A stretch of 61,289 nt of DNA from Bdellovibrionales bacterium (GTDB lineage: Bacteria > Bdellovibrionota > Bdellovibrionia > Bdellovibrionales > UBA1609). The notes beneath the pieces are model-generated. The model ran no database searches, had not been told where the DNA came from, and worked only from the letters and a program-made list of their open reading frames with translations. The translations under genes and the position numbers were made by a program. Shown here one piece after another: positions 50,431-57,354 of the stretch (the stretch's first letter is position 1; every line of letters begins with the position of its first letter). The stretch lies in contig SKLV01000004.1 in NCBI GenBank assembly GCA_007121385.1, forward strand, positions 1-61,289, in the 5' to 3' direction.

Positions 50431-51297
50431 ATGCAATTAGACAAAGAAAGAGAGGGTGGACCGAAGGGGACCTCTGATCCCGTGGTTTGGATGCCGGTCA
50501 AAAAGTTTCAAGACATACGGCTCGAGCGCTCTCAGGACGGAATTGCAAAGATCACTATCAATCGCCCTGAGGTCCGCAATGCTTTTCGCCCGCAAACCGT
50601 TCTTGAACTGCAGGAGGCTTTTTATTGGGTCCGGGAGGAACCGGAGATTGGCGTGGTGATTCTCACTGGAGAGGGCAAAGAGGCCTTTTGCGCCGGAGGT
50701 GATCAGAAAGTCCGTGGTCATGCGGGTTATGTTGGAAAAGATGGAGTGCCGCGATTAAATATTTTGGATGTGCAAAAGCAGATTCGCTCCCTTCCCAAGC
50801 CTGTCGTAGCCATGGTGGCTGGTTATGCCATTGGCGGCGGTCATGTTCTCCATGTGGTCTGTGATTTGACCATCGCAGCCGACAATGCCCGCTTTGGACA
50901 AACAGGTCCAAAAGTGGGCTCTTTTGATGGAGGCCTCGGATCTAGCTACCTGGCCCGGATTGTGGGGCAAAAGAAAGCTCGGGAAATTTGGTATCTTTGC
51001 CGGCAGTACTCCGCCGCAGAAGCTTTAGAGATGGGCTTGGTGAATAAAGTGGTCCCCTATGAGCAGCTGGAAAAAGAGACTGTGGCTTGGTGTCGAGAGA
51101 TCCTGGGGCATTCACCCTTGGCTCTTCGCTGCCTTAAAGCGGCTCTCAATGCCGACTGTGATGGTCAGATGGGTTTGCTGGACTTAGCGGGTAACGCCAC
51201 TCTGCTCTACTATATGTCTGAGGAAGCCAAGGAAGGTAAAAACGCTTTTGTCGAGAAGCGAGAGCCGGATTTTAGCCAGTTTCCACGCCTACCCTGA
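50431..51297 (+). CDS. menB: 1,4-dihydroxy-2-naphthoyl-CoA synthase
   Basis: [39 protein letters not shown]. Confidence 0.97.
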
Positions 51298-51310
51298 GGA
51301 GAGATATCGA

Positions 51311-52201
51311 ATGACTCATTGGTGGACCGCCTTTCGTCCCAAAACCTTGTCTGCAGCAGTGGTTCCCGTGGTGGTGGGGACGGCCCTGGTGCCCACTTTT
51401 GGAGGTGAGATCCTCTGGTGGGTCACTGGTCTGGCTTTATTCGCCGCCCTGATGATTCAGCTGGCCACCAACCTCTTCAATGATGTCATAGACTTCAAAA
51501 AAGGAGCTGATACAGAGGCGAGGCTGGGACCCACTCGGGTCACTCAGAGTGGGATGATTTCTGAGAAGGGAGTTTTTTGGGCCGCCATAGGTTTTTTACT
51601 TTTAGCCTTTCTCGCTGGAATCCCCCTAGTTCTACACGGGGGATGGCCTATTGTCGCAATAGGTTTGGTGTCCCTGTTTTTAGCTTATGCCTACACAGGA
51701 GGGCCATTCCCCTTGGCCTACCTTGGTTTGGGCGAGATCTTTGTGGTGCTTTTTTTCGGTCTTATTGCTGTGGGTGGAGTTTTTTACCTGCATACGCTCA
51801 GCTTTCATCCTGCGGCGGCAGTGGCCGGATTGCAGGTGGGCTTCTTGGCCACCGCTCTTTTGGTGATTAACAATATTCGTGATCGGGAACAGGACCTAAA
51901 AGCCCACAAAAAAACCTTGGCTGTTCGCTTTGGTCTGCGGTTTTCTCGTGTGGAGTTGCTGTTAATCTATCTGCTGAGCTTTGGTTTAGGAGCCTATTGG
52001 TTTATGCAGGGGCTTTGGCTTATGGCTTTTTTGCCCTTGGTGGTTTGGCCTCTGGTGCGCCAAGTGATCCACCAAGTTTTTTTCACTCAGCCGGGGGCTC
52101 ATTACAATGAGTTACTGGGAAAAGCAGCAGCCATTCATGTTCTGTTTGGAGTCCAGCTGGTTTTTGCCTTGGTGGTCAGCGGATTTTTACAGTGGCCTTA
52201 G
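51311..52201 (+). CDS. menA: DHNA prenyltransferase
   Basis: RPKTL, NLFND..DFKKGAD, YTGGPFPL.Y.GLGE, NNIRD..D..KKTLAVR. Confidence 0.93.
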   Translation: MTHWWTAFRPKTLSAAVVPVVVGTALVPTFGGEILWWVTGLALFAALMIQLATNLFNDVIDFKKGADTEARLGPTRVTQSGMISEKGVFWAAIGFLLLAFLAGIPLVLHGGWPIVAIGLVSLFLAYAYTGGPFPLAYLGLGEIFVVLFFGLIAVGGVFYLHTLSFHPAAAVAGLQVGFLATALLVINNIRDREQDLKAHKKTLAVRFGLRFSRVELLLIYLLSFGLGAYWFMQGLWLMAFLPLVVWPLVRQVIHQVFFTQPGAHYNELLGKAAAIHVLFGVQLVFALVVSGFLQWP

Positions 52202-53184
52202 TGAGGTTAAAAGGAGTCGGCCTGAGCCCCTATGAACTGAAGCGGGTGGATCAGAGAGGGGTGGTGTCGGGAACTCTGCTTCGCTGCGAGTTTTCCTCTG
52301 AAGACCAAAAAGCATCCTCCTTGGTGGGCTACTCCTGTTTGCAAACTTGGCCTTCGCTGGGAGAGCCTCGCTGGGAGGGCCTGATTCCTCTATTGAAATT
52401 AGGTGAGGAGGCCCACCGCCAGTCCCTCTTGCTTCAGCGGTGTTTGGAGATGGCCGCTGAGGACGCTCAAGCCAGAGGCCAGGGGCGAGCTCTTTTGGGC
52501 GAGACAGTGGAGTTGCCCTCAAGTCACGCGTTGATCTGGTGGCCGGAACCGGGAGAAAAGAGCTCCCAGCTCTCGGCCGACTGGCTTAGGCAAAAAGTCA
52601 CTTATGATTTTTTTAAGCTTAAGATATCGGCCCAGCAGGTGCAGACAGAGCCAGGAGCTCTCAAGAATTTTGTGGAGTCCCTGGGGCCAGAGCATAGGCT
52701 TCGCTTGGACTTTAATTCCAGTTTTAGATCCTCTGGGGAGTTTTTGACCTGGTGGAGGGGAGTGGAAGATTGGCTAAGGCCCTTTGTGGACTTTATGGAG
52801 GACCCTGTGGACAGTGGGAGCCTTCAGGAGTGGCAAGAGCTAGAGCAAGCGGCTCCGGTGGCCGCTGATCGGCAGTCAGAGCCAGAGGTTTTGCAAGCTG
52901 CCAGCATCAGGATTTGGAAGCCTCTGGTTCATCGTGAGCCCCAGTCTCCGCGAGTGGTCACTACCACCAATTTAGATCACCCCTTGGGGCAGGCCTATGC
53001 CGCTTTTAAATCCATAAAGAGACCTCCGGAGACTTGTGGCCTTCAGACGGCCCATGTCTACGAGCGAGACGCCTTCTCCGAGAGTATAAGCTACGATGGG
53101 CCTCGTATGAGGTTTTGCTCTGAAGGCTTAGGTTTTGGATTTACTCCTCAGTTGGAGTCTTTAGATTGGATCAGTCTGGATTAA
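52192..53184 (+). CDS. menC: o-succinylbenzoate synthase (divergent enolase superfamily)
   Basis: KLK, RLDFN, MEDP, AAD motifs; position in the men operon. Confidence 0.78.
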   Translation: MALVRLKGVGLSPYELKRVDQRGVVSGTLLRCEFSSEDQKASSLVGYSCLQTWPSLGEPRWEGLIPLLKLGEEAHRQSLLLQRCLEMAAEDAQARGQGRALLGETVELPSSHALIWWPEPGEKSSQLSADWLRQKVTYDFFKLKISAQQVQTEPGALKNFVESLGPEHRLRLDFNSSFRSSGEFLTWWRGVEDWLRPFVDFMEDPVDSGSLQEWQELEQAAPVAADRQSEPEVLQAASIRIWKPLVHREPQSPRVVTTTNLDHPLGQAYAAFKSIKRPPETCGLQTAHVYERDAFSESISYDGPRMRFCSEGLGFGFTPQLESLDWISLD

Positions 53185-54371
53185 TGATGAGCTTTTTAGG
53201 ATCAACCACTGAGGCTCTTAATATTGATTGGGATCAAGAGAGGGCCAGTCATCTTTTGTTGAATGATCGTTGGCCTCAGTCTGTGCGAGAGGGCTTAACG
53301 AAGTGGACCCAACAGGTCAGGCAGGAGTGGCCGGGGCTCATATGGTTGGCCACCTCGGGGACAACTGGCCGAAGTGGATATCGATTGGTGGGCTTGTCCC
53401 GCCAAGCTCTTTTGAGCTCAGCGCTGGCAGTGAATCGACATTTGCAGGTTCTCCAATCGGATCACTGGTTTTGTCCTCTTCCTCTTTTTCATGTAGGTGG
53501 TTTGGCCATTTTGGCCCGGTCTTTTCAAGCTGGACTGGCAGCTCCAGCCATCTGGAACGAAGCCTGGGACCCACAAGAATTTTGTTTGGCCCTTGGCGAC
53601 AGTCGGGCCACTTTAGCCTCTCTGGTTCCCACTCAAGTCTATGACTTAGTATCAAAGGGGCTTAAAGCGCCTTCTGTACTCAGGGCTCTTGTGGTGGGGG
53701 GAGGAGCCCTAAGTCCATTCCTGTACCAGAGAGCTAGGGAACTCAACTGGCCTCTTTTGCCCAGCTACGGGATGACGGAGTGCTCGTCGCAAGTGGCAAC
53801 AGCCTTATTGAGCTCCTTGGATCGGCCTGCTCAAGATTTTGCGGAGGATTTGCCTGAGCTGAGAAGGCTGGAGCACATTCAGTGGGCCACTGATGTAGGC
53901 TCTCAAGTATTACGAATTAAGAGCCCATCTCTTCTTACAGCCGTGATTGAGGTGGATTTACGGAATCCGGGAGCTTTTGCCTATGACCCTAAGCAAGAGG
54001 GATGGTTTCAAACTGAAGATATTGTGAGCTTAGAAGGCGAGAACTCCCTGCGCTTTATAGGTCGGGTGGGGGAGACTCTTAAAGTGAGCGGAGAGTTGGT
54101 CAATTTGCATTTCCTCAATTCTCGACTCCAAGAAATGATTATGGAGAGGGACCCTTCTCGGATTCAGAGTCTAGTGGTGGTGGCCAGAGCCTGCCCCCGT
54201 CGTGGTCATAATATGATCTTACTTGCTGAGAAAGATGTGCCTCTCCAGTGGGTGGAAGATCTTCGGCAGACTTACGATCAGTCTGTTTTCCCCTACGAGA
54301 GGATGACTGCTGTGGAGTGGGTGGATAAAATCCCTCGCAACTCCATGGGTAAAGTCCAATGGGGCCGGTAA
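53184..54371 (+). CDS. menE: o-succinylbenzoate-CoA ligase
   Basis: TSGTTG, LPLFHVGGL, SLVPTQ, SYGMTE, IPRNSMGK. Confidence 0.9.
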   Translation: MMSFLGSTTEALNIDWDQERASHLLLNDRWPQSVREGLTKWTQQVRQEWPGLIWLATSGTTGRSGYRLVGLSRQALLSSALAVNRHLQVLQSDHWFCPLPLFHVGGLAILARSFQAGLAAPAIWNEAWDPQEFCLALGDSRATLASLVPTQVYDLVSKGLKAPSVLRALVVGGGALSPFLYQRARELNWPLLPSYGMTECSSQVATALLSSLDRPAQDFAEDLPELRRLEHIQWATDVGSQVLRIKSPSLLTAVIEVDLRNPGAFAYDPKQEGWFQTEDIVSLEGENSLRFIGRVGETLKVSGELVNLHFLNSRLQEMIMERDPSRIQSLVVVARACPRRGHNMILLAEKDVPLQWVEDLRQTYDQSVFPYERMTAVEWVDKIPRNSMGKVQWGR

Positions 54372-54387: not shown

Positions 54388-56130
54388 TTAATGCCCAGAG
54401 TTGATTTGAGTTAAGTTTTTAAAGCTTGATCTTTCTAACATCTCGTAAAAATCTCGCCGTTGACCAACTGCCAGGATTTCAATTTCCCTCATATCTCTTT
54501 TAATATGATAGGCGATTCTCAATCGCAGTCCCTCTAGGTTCACTTTGTGACGACGGACCCGATGCTTTCTAAAAACATTATGGGCCAGTACACCATTGGT
54601 ATAGGGGCTTTGGGCAATCTGGGGGAAAATCTCATGGACCAATCGGTCAGCCACGGAGGCGTTGCCCAGGCTAGCTAAATTTTTTTGTACCTTCAAGGAA
54701 AGAGGAGCGAGAGAGTGGGGTCGGGAATAATTTGGAGTCGATGGGAGCGATGATTTCGGGGGAGAGTCTGGATGGGGGCTTTGAGTCTTTCTCTTGTTGG
54801 GGTTGGGTGCTGCCGGAGAACTGGATTTCTTAAGCCAGGCTTCTTCACCAGAGAGCCAAAGAGCCTTAGTGCGAGCGACTGGGGGTGAAGCCTTTTGAGC
54901 GGGCCTGACTATGGGAGATCGCAGTGACTGTATTTGTCTTCTCAATTCTGCAAGCTCCGACTTCATGGCTTTACGGAGGGAGTACTCCAGTTGACCACTT
55001 TGGAATTTATGCAGGACAAGACCTACTGAAACATAGTCAAAGAGTTCAAGGAGAATTGAGGAGACCCCTGATTTATAACCCATATTCTTTATACTTTTTT
55101 GAGCTAGGTCACGATCATAATCGAGAAAGCTAAGGGGCTCTGGGTGCATGCTGCTGAAGACAGCTTTTTCTACAAGAGGCAAAATTTCAATCAGCTGATA
55201 AAACAACATTTCTTTGATTGAGGCCACTTCAAAAGATTCAAATTTGTGTCTTAAAGAGATTAATTTTTTACTCGCTGAAGCATCGATTCCTCTAACGAGT
55301 TTGTCCAGCTCCGTGGGCTCCTGTTGGGCTTTGAAGTCCATGTAAACTTGCCGATACTCCAGTTGACTAGGGCCTCTTTCCAGGACAAAGAGGAGAAAGT
55401 CATTGATGGCTTTATCTCGCCGGGGCCAAAGGTACTCATCGATATACATTTTAAGATTAGTTATAAGAAATTGATCAAAGTCTTCATCTACATCCAGTCC
55501 ACTGTTAAGAAACTGGTGCTTGAAACGATCCTGGTGGTGCTGGGGGTGCATAGAAACAAGGGTTCTAGTCACAAATTCAGTAAAAAGGGGCCCATGTGGA
55601 AGGTTCGCAAATTCTTCCCGCTGGCTGAGTTGCCAGATCAGGGATCTGTACAGCTCTTGGGCCAGTTTCTTGGCCAGACGGGGAGGGGCTGAGCCCGATC
55701 CAAAAAGGGCAAGGGGATCCTCTGAGTCGGCCCCCGACCAATGGGAGAGTATGCTTCGAATTTCCTCAAAGTTGGCATCTGTAGGAGAGAGCAGAGAGAG
55801 ATTAAGCTGGCGGGTGAGCTGCTCAAACCAAAAGCGGCGAAGCTGAGTCTGTGTGGGGGAGGTCTTTTCTAGAAAGAGGGCCACCTCGCTGAGTTGATCG
55901 AAGGCCTCTACAAGGTCTTTAGCCTCTTCCAACTTGAGCAGCTCAGGCCGCGAAATCCCAAAAATTTCCTGAGCTCGAGCGGAAGAAAGGGAAAAAATCG
56001 GTTCCCCCTTCTCTAAGAGCGAGGAGCAGAGTTGGGGGAGTTGAGAAGGGGCCCCGGAGCCGGCAGCCACTCGCTCTGGAAAAGCTCCCAGGAAGACAAA
56101 TGGGAAGGTCAATAGCCAAAAATTTTTCAT
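54388..56130 (-). CDS. Signal-peptide protein with helical core, Pro-rich linker and C-terminal RelE/ParE-like domain
   Basis: ATG 56130 opens MKNFWLLTFPFVFLGAF..VAA. C-terminus VQKNLASL..RRHKV..LRIAYHI..IEILAVGQRRDFY fits the RelE family pattern. Confidence 0.72.
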   Translation of the reverse strand: MKNFWLLTFPFVFLGAFPERVAAGSGAPSQLPQLCSSLLEKGEPIFSLSSARAQEIFGISRPELLKLEEAKDLVEAFDQLSEVALFLEKTSPTQTQLRRFWFEQLTRQLNLSLLSPTDANFEEIRSILSHWSGADSEDPLALFGSGSAPPRLAKKLAQELYRSLIWQLSQREEFANLPHGPLFTEFVTRTLVSMHPQHHQDRFKHQFLNSGLDVDEDFDQFLITNLKMYIDEYLWPRRDKAINDFLLFVLERGPSQLEYRQVYMDFKAQQEPTELDKLVRGIDASASKKLISLRHKFESFEVASIKEMLFYQLIEILPLVEKAVFSSMHPEPLSFLDYDRDLAQKSIKNMGYKSGVSSILLELFDYVSVGLVLHKFQSGQLEYSLRKAMKSELAELRRQIQSLRSPIVRPAQKASPPVARTKALWLSGEEAWLKKSSSPAAPNPNKRKTQSPHPDSPPKSSLPSTPNYSRPHSLAPLSLKVQKNLASLGNASVADRLVHEIFPQIAQSPYTNGVLAHNVFRKHRVRRHKVNLEGLRLRIAYHIKRDMREIEILAVGQRRDFYEMLERSSFKNLTQINSGH

Positions 56131-56226
56131 GGGAAAAAGAGGTCTAACGAGAAATACTGCGCAGCGCAATAAAGTTCTCCTAGGCGGGTAAAATTTTTGC
56201 TGATCCGGCTCATAGAATGGGCAAAA

Positions 56227-57354
56227 ATGAAGCCTATGAAAGCAAAACCAAGAGTTCAGGGGCTCCTTATTCGATTTTTTTTGGCTGTGGCCTGGATGGC
56301 GGCCTTGGGACTGAGGCCGAGTTCTCTGCAGGCCCACTCCTGGGTTGGGGTCTATAAGGACCAAGTGGACTCCGTGGTCGTCGTTCTCGGCCAGGGCGTT
56401 TGTGCAGGCTCCCTGGTGAGTGAAGACTTGGTCCTCACGGCATGGCATTGTGTCCCTTATCTGAGAACGGTTTTTGTCGTTTTGAGAAATCCAGAGGTTC
56501 GCCTGAGGGCGCAAGTGATTGATCGGGATCGTCGTCACGACTTAGCCCTTTTGCGTTTAGAGAAACCTGTGGAAGGAAGAAAGGTTTTGCGTCTGGCAGG
56601 AAGGAGTTCAGACTCTCAGGAGTCCTCGCTGCAGGAGGGCGACCCTGTGGCCACCATTGGCCACCCCCTGGCCATTTCTACCCGATGGCTAAGTGGTGTT
56701 CTTCTTGATGATCGAGCCTACCTGATCTCTGCGGGAATTGTTTCTAAGATCAATGAGAAGAATATTATCAGCGATCTATCGTTAAGCCCTGGAAACTCAG
56801 GGGGACCACTCTTGAATCAAAAAGGGGAGATGGTGGGAGTGGCCTCAGCTAAATTGGTTGGCCTAGCAGCTGGACAAATTGGCTATTTTACCCCAGTGGA
56901 GAAAGCGACTCCCTTAATGGAGAATTCGGAGAAGAAAGGTCCCTTGCCTTGGTGGTGGGCAGATAATAGTCAGAGGCTCTTTTTGACCCTGGTTTTAGAC
57001 CCCGTTCTTGATGAGTTGGGCCGGGACCTGAGTCATTGGGGTTTGGAATGGAGTCTTGCACTTCGAGATCGATGGCGCTGGTCCCTCGGGAGGACTCGTT
57101 GGGGGTCAAGTGAAAACATGTTGTATTGGCGAACTGGATATCTTCATCGTTTTTCTCGGCAGGGGATCGGGACCACAAGCTTAGATGTGAGTGTGGGTGA
57201 AAACTACTATCGGTTCTCTGCAGGACAAACTGGTCATGCCACTGCTTTGGCTTTGGGGCTTCAGTTGAGAACACTTAGGTTTGAGTGGGCTCGACTCTTT
57301 CACCCTGAAGTGGAGGGGAGCTCTTTCACTGTGGGCTTTGGAGTCGGGCGCTGA
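56227..57354 (+). CDS. Trypsin-like serine protease with putative C-terminal outer-membrane beta-barrel
   Basis: Signal peptide; LTAWH, DLALL, PGNSGGP; amphipathic C-terminal strands ending FTVGFGVGR. ATG 56236 is an alternative start. Confidence 0.8.
   Translation: MKPMKAKPRVQGLLIRFFLAVAWMAALGLRPSSLQAHSWVGVYKDQVDSVVVVLGQGVCAGSLVSEDLVLTAWHCVPYLRTVFVVLRNPEVRLRAQVIDRDRRHDLALLRLEKPVEGRKVLRLAGRSSDSQESSLQEGDPVATIGHPLAISTRWLSGVLLDDRAYLISAGIVSKINEKNIISDLSLSPGNSGGPLLNQKGEMVGVASAKLVGLAAGQIGYFTPVEKATPLMENSEKKGPLPWWWADNSQRLFLTLVLDPVLDELGRDLSHWGLEWSLALRDRWRWSLGRTRWGSSENMLYWRTGYLHRFSRQGIGTTSLDVSVGENYYRFSAGQTGHATALALGLQLRTLRFEWARLFHPEVEGSSFTVGFGVGR

Follow-up and report, generated by a model that had tools for sequence, protein, structure and literature searches.

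What is a toxin domain of the RelE type doing at the end of a long protein that looks built for export, with no antitoxin gene beside it? RelE toxins are small cytoplasmic ribosome-dependent messenger-RNA ribonucleases (mRNases) that arrest growth from inside the cell and are held in check by the antitoxin RelB. The gene that raises the question lies at positions 54388..56130, on the minus strand, of contig SKLV01000004.1 (assembly GCA_007121385.1) from a Bdellovibrionales bacterium, a soda-lake relative of predatory Bdellovibrio; the whole stretch of DNA that was analysed, 61,289 nucleotides, is referred to here as the window. The product, P0001, is a protein of 580 amino acids (aa), and it is its architecture, its predicted fold, its residue matches to RelE, the lack of an adjacent antitoxin gene, the conserved pairing with a protease gene and its apparent restriction to one genus that call for an explanation. 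The explanation that we place first, at somewhat short of an even chance, is that P0001 is a Sec-exported effector with a RelE-type ribonuclease (RNase) domain, directed outwards, with export itself protecting the producer.

The C-terminal domain occupies residues 475–580 (54391..54708, minus strand), with a core of about 95 residues (475–567); the final 13 residues are missing from the orthologue found in a congener. A preliminary description of this DNA had named a RelE/ParE-like domain here, and the three strings that it quoted (RRHKV, LRIAYHI and AVGQRRDFY) all lie within the domain; AlphaFold2 (AF2) and Foldseek, run as the check on this claim, gave fold predictions that agree with a match to the Pfam family ParE-like_toxin (PF15781). 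PF15781 is the sole Pfam family for P0001 up to an E value of 10, scoring 19.9 bits with the whole protein and 23.0–23.4 bits (E = 6e-5 to 8e-5) with the domain alone, and it is matched at the same place in both orthologues. PF05016 had no match in the genome that carries P0001 (G000) or in that of the congener (G001), and no NCBIfam family matched P0001. The AF2 model of the domain, with a two-sequence alignment as input, has a predicted local distance difference test score (pLDDT) of 72 and a predicted template-modelling score (pTM) of 0.65; its elements are, in order, helices at 5–13 and 17–33, strands at 51–58, 61–69 and 76–82 and a helix at 84–93.

Compared with the PDB by Foldseek, this model is most similar to E. 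coli RelE (4fxh_B, E = 1.2e-3, probability 1.00). The best matches are E. coli RelE, M. tuberculosis RelE1, T. thermophilus RelE, HigB2, YoeB and ParE, with template-modelling (TM) scores of 0.53–0.68 in the top rows. Of the 37 matches listed, 34 have titles that denote toxins of toxin–antitoxin (TA) pairs or Cami1, a protein with a RelE domain; the others are a DNA glycosylase, a cystatin-like protein and MlaCD. The ESM Atlas has a model of its own for this protein, which aligns over residues 470–570 with four RelE/ParE clusters at TM scores of 0.66–0.88. In profile comparisons by hhalign, the domain matched a set of eight standalone toxins from the phylum (PF15781) with a probability of 27.6% (E = 6.5e-4) and the family of P0007, a bona fide PF15781 protein described below, with one of 37.9% (E = 3.4e-4); BLASTP of the domain against P0007 gave E = 0.002 with 30% identity over 43 aa. 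Sequence searches of the PDB produced what we take to be noise: ribosomal L7/L12 for the whole protein (E = 0.71), designed repeat proteins for the last 120 aa (E of at least 0.034) and lipovitellin for A1, a profile of the domain (E = 1.8). As four lines agree (Pfam, AF2, Foldseek and ESM Atlas), each of them weak alone, the domain very probably belongs to the RelE/ParE fold class, as a far outlier that passes no family threshold.

We aligned the domain by MAFFT with E. coli RelE (K-12 record), the orthologue domain and eight PF15781 sequences. The catalytic set of RelE, in which we take K52 and K54 to be included, is matched at four of its five positions: K52, R61, R81 and Y87 align with K529 (54544–54546), R538 (54517–54519), R558 (54457–54459) and Y562 (54445–54447), a span of 54445..54546 on the minus strand. 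At the columns of K52, R61, R81, Y87 and K54 the congener has R, R, R, Y and H, respectively, and both orthologues keep R538, R558 and Y562. The Arg/Arg/Tyr positions of the RelE type are thus present by alignment. R61 and R81 are named as catalytic residues of RelE in the available text of one report (PMC3482391), and that of another gives the catalytic set as ‘two arginine and a tyrosine’ (PMC9424270).

At the other end of the protein, residues 1–23 (56062..56130, minus strand) form a leader with Lys2, a 14-residue hydrophobic run (F4–F17) and V-A-A ahead of G24, the cleavage site being judged by the -3/-1 rule. The most hydrophobic 11-residue window of the whole protein begins at residues 4–7, and that of the homologue at residues 9–12. 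These features, and the fact that both proteins keep them, are our grounds for calling the leader signal-peptide-like. Pfam found no marker domain of type V, VI or VII secretion systems in P0001. The leader is followed by a region without recognized relatives (residues 24–405; 54916..56061, minus strand), which AF2 models as all helix over residues 28–404 at low confidence (pLDDT below 50 for most of it; 38.4 for the full-length model). Pfam, NCBIfam and the PDB gave no match to this region, and a feature search of the ESM Atlas with residues 26–405 gave no usable match (structural TM of at most 0.30). A weak PADLOC match to Csm2 (E = 0.0031, residues 68–103) was taken as noise. Patches near residues 221–240 and 321–340 of the helical region are conserved in the orthologue.

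Between the helical region and the RelE-like domain lies a basic linker rich in Pro, Ser and Lys (residues 406–474; 54709..54915, minus strand), with 14 Pro, 11 Lys or Arg and 3 Asp or Glu; Pro, Ser, Lys, Thr, Gln and Ala make up a fraction of 0.65 across residues 400–470. It is predicted to be disordered, with no secondary structure and low pLDDT in the model. Its alignment is poorly conserved except at the motif NPNKRK (residues 443–448; 54787..54804, minus strand), which is identical in both orthologues together with the SSP before it; the motif is possibly a processing or targeting site. The net charge is -10 over residues 26–400 and +10 over residues 470–580. The preliminary description had divided the protein in this way, into a signal-peptide-like N-terminus, about 380 residues of helical sequence and a Pro/Ser/Lys-rich linker, and the division holds: both known members keep the hydrophobic leader and its small-residue cleavage motif, the all-helix prediction agrees, albeit at low confidence, and so does the composition of the linker.

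P0001 has a single homologue, a protein of 588 aa in the congener (E = 2.4e-66 in a six-frame search). An exhaustive search of 1,835,955,588 representative proteins returned two, the query and this protein, both with the same C-terminal domain; a word-index search returned the query itself only, a six-frame search of its own genome gave one copy and a scan of genome contigs with P0001 found nothing. Among 41 related genomes (its own included) there was one real match, in the congener, and the eight others at E ≤ 1 are short pieces with E values of at least 0.006. Profile A1 gave convincing matches in G000 and G001 only, among 401 genomes of the phylum; weak matches in 11 genomes (E = 7.8e-4 to 0.0099, nine of the 11 interrupted by stops) were taken as noise, and the profile matched none of 283 word-sharing candidates. 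As far as can be seen from these searches, the protein is restricted to one genus. The two proteins are 27–30% identical overall: the leader stands at 36%, the linker at 29.4%, the helical region lowest at 24.5% and the RelE-like core highest at 48.4%. The difference between these last two values marks the RelE-like domain as the part of the protein that sequence comparison finds most constrained. The preliminary description had called the protein polymorphic-toxin-like and had proposed looking for the same N-terminal region with other C-terminal domains. None was found in its own genome, the 41 related genomes or the 1.84 billion representatives; with no variable C-termini and no immunity gene after either member, the label finds no support.

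The open frame on the minus strand extends over 54388–56538 (716 codons), of which the gene, according to the list of open reading frames (ORFs) and its translation, takes 580 codons (54391–56130) and a TAA stop at 54388–54390. ATG 56130 is the start supported by comparison, since the homologue (588 aa, in a frame of 606 open codons) aligns from residue 4 of P0001 and since the longer frame overlaps, antisense, the divergent protease gene. The ORF is thus real, and the coordinates first given for it were correct to within a few bases. Other ORFs of at least 40 aa within the gene span are out-of-frame on the same strand or lie on the opposite strand. The GC content of the gene (0.477) and that of its third codon positions (0.480) fall inside the range of its neighbours, and the idea of a recent horizontal transfer was dropped for this reason. 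A scan of the locus for promoters and terminators gave nothing over the shuffled expectation. Pieces of the stretch 54388–56400 that are at least 99% identical, without indels, occur in other DNA runs (soda-lake and salt-lake metagenomes of different years; X4, X5 and X6), and a run with near-identical pieces carries one G>T difference at window position 54762.

On one side the gene faces a convergent AMP-binding gene (53166..54371, plus strand; Pfam AMP-binding), with 16 bases between the two stops. This neighbour is menE-like by context, as it follows UbiA and o-succinylbenzoate synthase (OSBS) genes. In the row at 51248–54371 (plus strand), the ends of the UbiA prenyltransferase, OSBS and AMP-binding ligase genes (menA/menC/menE-like) overlap. 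The convergent gene lies too close for a downstream immunity or antitoxin gene to fit between. The other flank is a divergent gene for a secreted HtrA-like serine protease (56227..57354, plus strand; Pfam Trypsin_2 and Trypsin, with PDB matches) of 375 aa. The protease has a signal-like N-terminus of its own, and HhoA, DegQ and HtrA1 match it best in the PDB, over residues 56–241. A PDZ domain is lacking; in its place the C-terminal region, about 130 aa rich in Trp, Arg and Gly, matches no family.

No ORF of at least 40 aa lies between the gene and either flanking gene in the window, no antitoxin-sized gene adjoins the RelE-like gene in the window or in the congener, and no immunity gene lies immediately downstream in either. 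The neighbourhood set out in the preliminary description, with a menE-like convergent gene, a divergent protease and no antitoxin gene between, was thus borne out, and the same lack is seen in the congener. Searches for PF02604 and PF05016 gave nothing in the genome of the host, which is 97% complete. PF04221 (RelB) was not found in it either, and the result is uninformative, as the control was positive in none of 14 genomes, E. coli among them.

In the congener a protease of 50% identity stands in the same divergent position, and the outer flanks differ: one side has an exported α/β-hydrolase (286 aa, with its own leader, directly downstream) and a helix-turn-helix protein, the other rhodanese-domain and MutS-like genes. 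Because the pair is kept in two genomes while both outer flanks differ, the gene and the protease may behave as a two-gene unit, although two related genomes are modest grounds for saying so. Full-length relatives of the protease were found only in G001, G065 and G044 among 61 genomes of the family. The idea that a positional homologue of P0001 might stand beside the protease elsewhere failed: in G065 and G044, which belong to another genus, its divergent neighbour is an unrelated protein.

If P0001 is an exported effector, its leader would send the unfolded chain through Sec and the RelE-type domain would fold only outside the cytoplasm. No antitoxin would then be needed, because the RNase domain would never mature in the cytoplasm of the producer. 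The helical region and the cationic linker may serve in targeting or entry outside the cytoplasm. The long cationic disordered linker, together with the conserved NPNKRK, suggests release or activation by proteolysis, which would free the C-terminal domain and might be carried out by the adjacent HtrA-like protease. Either the basic domain, once freed, or the entire protein would need to enter a target cell (prey or competitor), where the domain would cut ribosome-bound mRNA and stop translation. Export, RNase activity, proteolytic release, delivery and the target are what we infer here. Of the exported polymorphic-toxin-like effector first proposed, the leader, the RelE fold, the Arg/Arg/Tyr positions and the lack of an antitoxin gene have stood, and the polymorphic-toxin label has found no support.

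Several points weigh against this proposal. The PF15781 score lies under the curated cut-off of 28 bits and covers just positions 46–86 of the 87 in the profile, no Foldseek match reaches E ≤ 0.001, the hhalign probabilities are low and the structure models were built on a two-sequence alignment. K54 of RelE is unmatched (N531 in P0001 and H in the orthologue), and the residues were equated in an alignment where identity to RelE is about 19%. With only two members the comparative evidence is thin. Secreted antibacterial toxins usually come with an immunity gene, which is absent at this locus. The HtrA family is not known for cleavage at basic sites, and the reading of KRK as a trypsin-type site for the neighbour was downgraded, as the protease domain is HtrA/DegQ-like; the support for cleavage at KRK is the adjacency of the two genes in two congeners. 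The predatory lifestyle of the producer is read from the label ‘Bdellovibrionales bacterium’.

Other explanations of the locus have to be set against these data. That there is no real gene or domain here, just a chance ORF with a chance motif match, is scarcely credible. It would fit the restriction of the relatives to one genus and the lack of a Shine–Dalgarno-like purine run in the 20 bases before the ATG (judged by eye), but the intact frame of 588 codons in another species, with 27–30% identity and the same domain order and neighbour, comes close to refuting it, and the neighbour-like composition and the indel-free pieces of at least 99% identity in other runs speak against it as well. We also strongly doubt that the exported domain is of the ParE type and, delivered in the same way, poisons DNA gyrase rather than cutting mRNA. 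The sole Pfam match does bear the name ‘ParE-like toxin’, and the ParE chains 8c26, 6x0a and 6xrw are among the Foldseek matches; the name, however, describes a family and no tested activity, and the ParE chains (TM 0.44–0.55) stand below those of RelE, HigB2 and YoeB. To our knowledge ParE proteins lack the Arg/Arg/Tyr positions of RelE, which are present here. Because these positions are kept and RelE-type chains outrank ParE in Foldseek, the comparison favours an RNase over a gyrase poison. An intracellular fused toxin–antitoxin would account for the missing antitoxin gene: the N-terminus would be a membrane anchor or misjudged, and the helical region would neutralize the RelE domain in cis until the neighbouring protease, for example, or a phage infection set it free, making a one-gene defence or addiction module. 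The acidic helical region (-10) beside a basic RelE-like domain (+10) is as in antitoxin–toxin pairs, and the protease gene is a conserved neighbour. Yet by the positive-inside rule Lys2 before the hydrophobic segment would usually put the remainder of the chain outside the cytoplasm, the protease, with its own signal-like N-terminus, would miss a cytoplasmic substrate, the N-terminal region has no antitoxin-family match in Pfam or PADLOC and the full-length model has no confident contact between the domains, so that we regard this arrangement as improbable. A prediction of the complex between residues 26–405 and 470–580 returned no answer (score 0.00 in two runs) and is evidence neither way.

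The remaining alternative, which we hold to be rather unlikely, is that P0001 is exported to the envelope or periplasm and has a RelE/ParE fold that no longer functions as an RNase and serves as a module for binding protein or nucleic acid, with the HtrA-like neighbour an ordinary quality-control protease of the envelope. In favour of this, ribosomes are confined to the cytoplasm, neither an immunity nor an antitoxin gene is present, the domain has diverged to below every family threshold, K54 is unmatched and the gene displays none of the polymorphism or cassette behaviour of a weapon. A recruited fold would not readily explain why conservation is highest in the RelE-like domain, nor why the positions that are invariant between domains of 48% identity include exactly the Arg/Arg/Tyr of RelE; a basic C-terminal domain after a disordered cationic linker is, moreover, typical of released toxin domains. 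An exported RelE-type RNase effector remains the explanation that we place first.

P0001 is not the only protein with a leader and a domain of this type. PF15781 scores over its cut-off in ten of 301 genomes of the phylum that were searched. In one of them (G118) it occurs in P0007 (L040:1090-1755, plus strand; 222 aa, 48.7 bits), in which a spacer of about 110 aa separates a signal-peptide-like leader from a complete PF15781 domain. P0008, a metagenomic protein of 221 aa, is 62% identical to P0007 and has the same leader (47.8 bits); P0009 is a leaderless relative of P0007 of 127 aa, named RelE by one source. The P0007 gene directly follows a Fer2_3/Fer4 iron–sulfur subunit gene in L040, with no antitoxin-sized gene adjoining it there. 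In the MAFFT alignment the Arg equivalent to R81 of RelE is replaced by His in P0007 and P0008. Like P0001, the two begin with a hydrophobic leader, end in a ParE-like_toxin domain and carry a helical spacer in between, and each has a single Cys shortly behind the leader; they differ in being much shorter, in having a domain that passes the Pfam cut-off and in their unrelated neighbours, and P0007 comes from another Bdellovibrionota lineage. From this separate architecture, exported RelE/ParE-type domains appear to have arisen at least twice in or near the phylum.

A Cys shortly after the leader is found in all four leader-bearing RelE/ParE-domain proteins (P0001 Cys35, P0003 Cys33, P0007 Cys27 and P0008 Cys27), and Cys35 of P0001 and Cys33 of P0003 are the sole Cys within residues 1–400 of each. 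A lipoprotein reading was rejected: A-A-S-C in the congener would fit the lipobox pattern, whereas the Cys of P0001 is preceded by Q-L and does not.

A bolder version of the proposal, which we think unlikely as a whole, is that predators of the Bdellovibrio type turned a RelE-type mRNase into an antitoxin-free, Sec-exported predation effector, with a novel helical carrier and release at the linker motif by a dedicated HtrA-like protease, that shuts down translation in the prey. The effector would then be part of a broader tendency in this lineage to export modules that stay cytoplasmic in other bacteria, of which the second exported ParE-like family would be another instance. If the effector proposal were true, it would offer a second way of making a RelE-type toxin safe for its owner, by keeping it unfolded until it is outside, and a route by which predatory bacteria might silence translation in prey. 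One gene and one protease gene would be a compact test case for a ribosome-targeting domain crossing the envelope of a target, and the 380-residue carrier, with one orthologue in a congener and no relatives outside the genus, would represent a delivery or regulatory domain of a new kind. Were the domain inactive, the locus would illustrate, on a small scale, how the cell envelope can recruit a toxin fold.

Among known proteins, E. coli RelE (PDB entries 4fxh, 4fxe and 4v7j) provides the best Foldseek matches and shares the predicted fold, with two N-terminal helices, an antiparallel sheet and a C-terminal helix, and has the equivalents of K52, R61, R81 and Y87 aligned in P0001; the identity is about 19%, and the domain scores below the threshold of every family model. 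RelE is a cytoplasmic protein of 95 aa encoded directly after relB, whereas P0001 has 580 aa, a signal-peptide-like leader and no adjacent antitoxin gene.

Closer in architecture is the Tox-RelE of Zhang et al. (2012; PMC3482391), in the available text of which it occurs with Sec-type (T2SS-type) export, RHS repeats, a HINT peptidase and Imm54 immunity, and a single instance of a classical RelE domain in a polymorphic toxin is given. It resembles P0001 in having a C-terminal RelE-type domain behind a leader, which in P0001 is signal-peptide-like, and embodies the concept, proposed here for P0001, of a TA-type toxin turned into a secreted weapon. P0001 differs from what is described there in lacking RHS repeats, a HINT peptidase, an immunity gene and alternative C-termini, and in having an N-terminal region without recognized relatives, predicted to be helical, and a Bdellovibrionales host. 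RelE domains on secreted toxins are thus already in print, if rare (PMC3482391). The term ‘Tox-RelE’ is itself rare in the literature searched, and the available texts that combine Bdellovibrio or secretion with RelE contain no description of such a protein in Bdellovibrionota.

The closest functional analogue that we found is the Gram-positive polymorphic toxin system with an S8 peptidase (S8-PTS). As set out in the available parts of two reports (PMC9424270 and PMC13556192), it comprises a signal peptide, a BetaH carrier and a BECR RNase (for example Ntox35), together with an immunity protein and an S8 peptidase that is secreted and separately encoded; in S. aureus the peptidase cuts the toxin extracellularly and exposes a cationic peptide that aids intoxication. 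The signal peptide, carrier, C-terminal RNase and adjacent secreted peptidase gene have their counterparts here, putative ones for all but the peptidase. Going by those parts, the S8-PTS peptidase is an S8 subtilase, whereas the neighbour of P0001 is an S1 HtrA-like protease (Trypsin_2), and its carrier is BetaH whereas that of P0001 has no relatives beyond the orthologue, a contrast that rests on the predicted all-helical structure. S8-PTS, as described, also has an immunity gene, is polymorphic with 16 toxin domains and is found in Bacillota and Actinomycetota; P0001 has no immunity gene and is monomorphic.

Cami1 is a cytoplasmic CRISPR-associated effector controlled by cyclic oligoadenylate. 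As in P0001, its RelE domain lies behind a larger N-terminal domain (a CARF–RelE fusion; PDB entry 8phj), and by its title the entry shows the protein on the 70S ribosome, which is therefore still within reach of a fused RelE domain; Cami1 differs in having no signal peptide and an unrelated N-terminal domain. Since P0001 has neither variable C-termini nor an immunity gene, and since it has no antitoxin and is not a small cytoplasmic protein, it stands outside both polymorphic toxin systems and type II TA systems. We file the locus, on its sequence features, as one for a putatively secreted protein with an RNase-like domain of the TA type.

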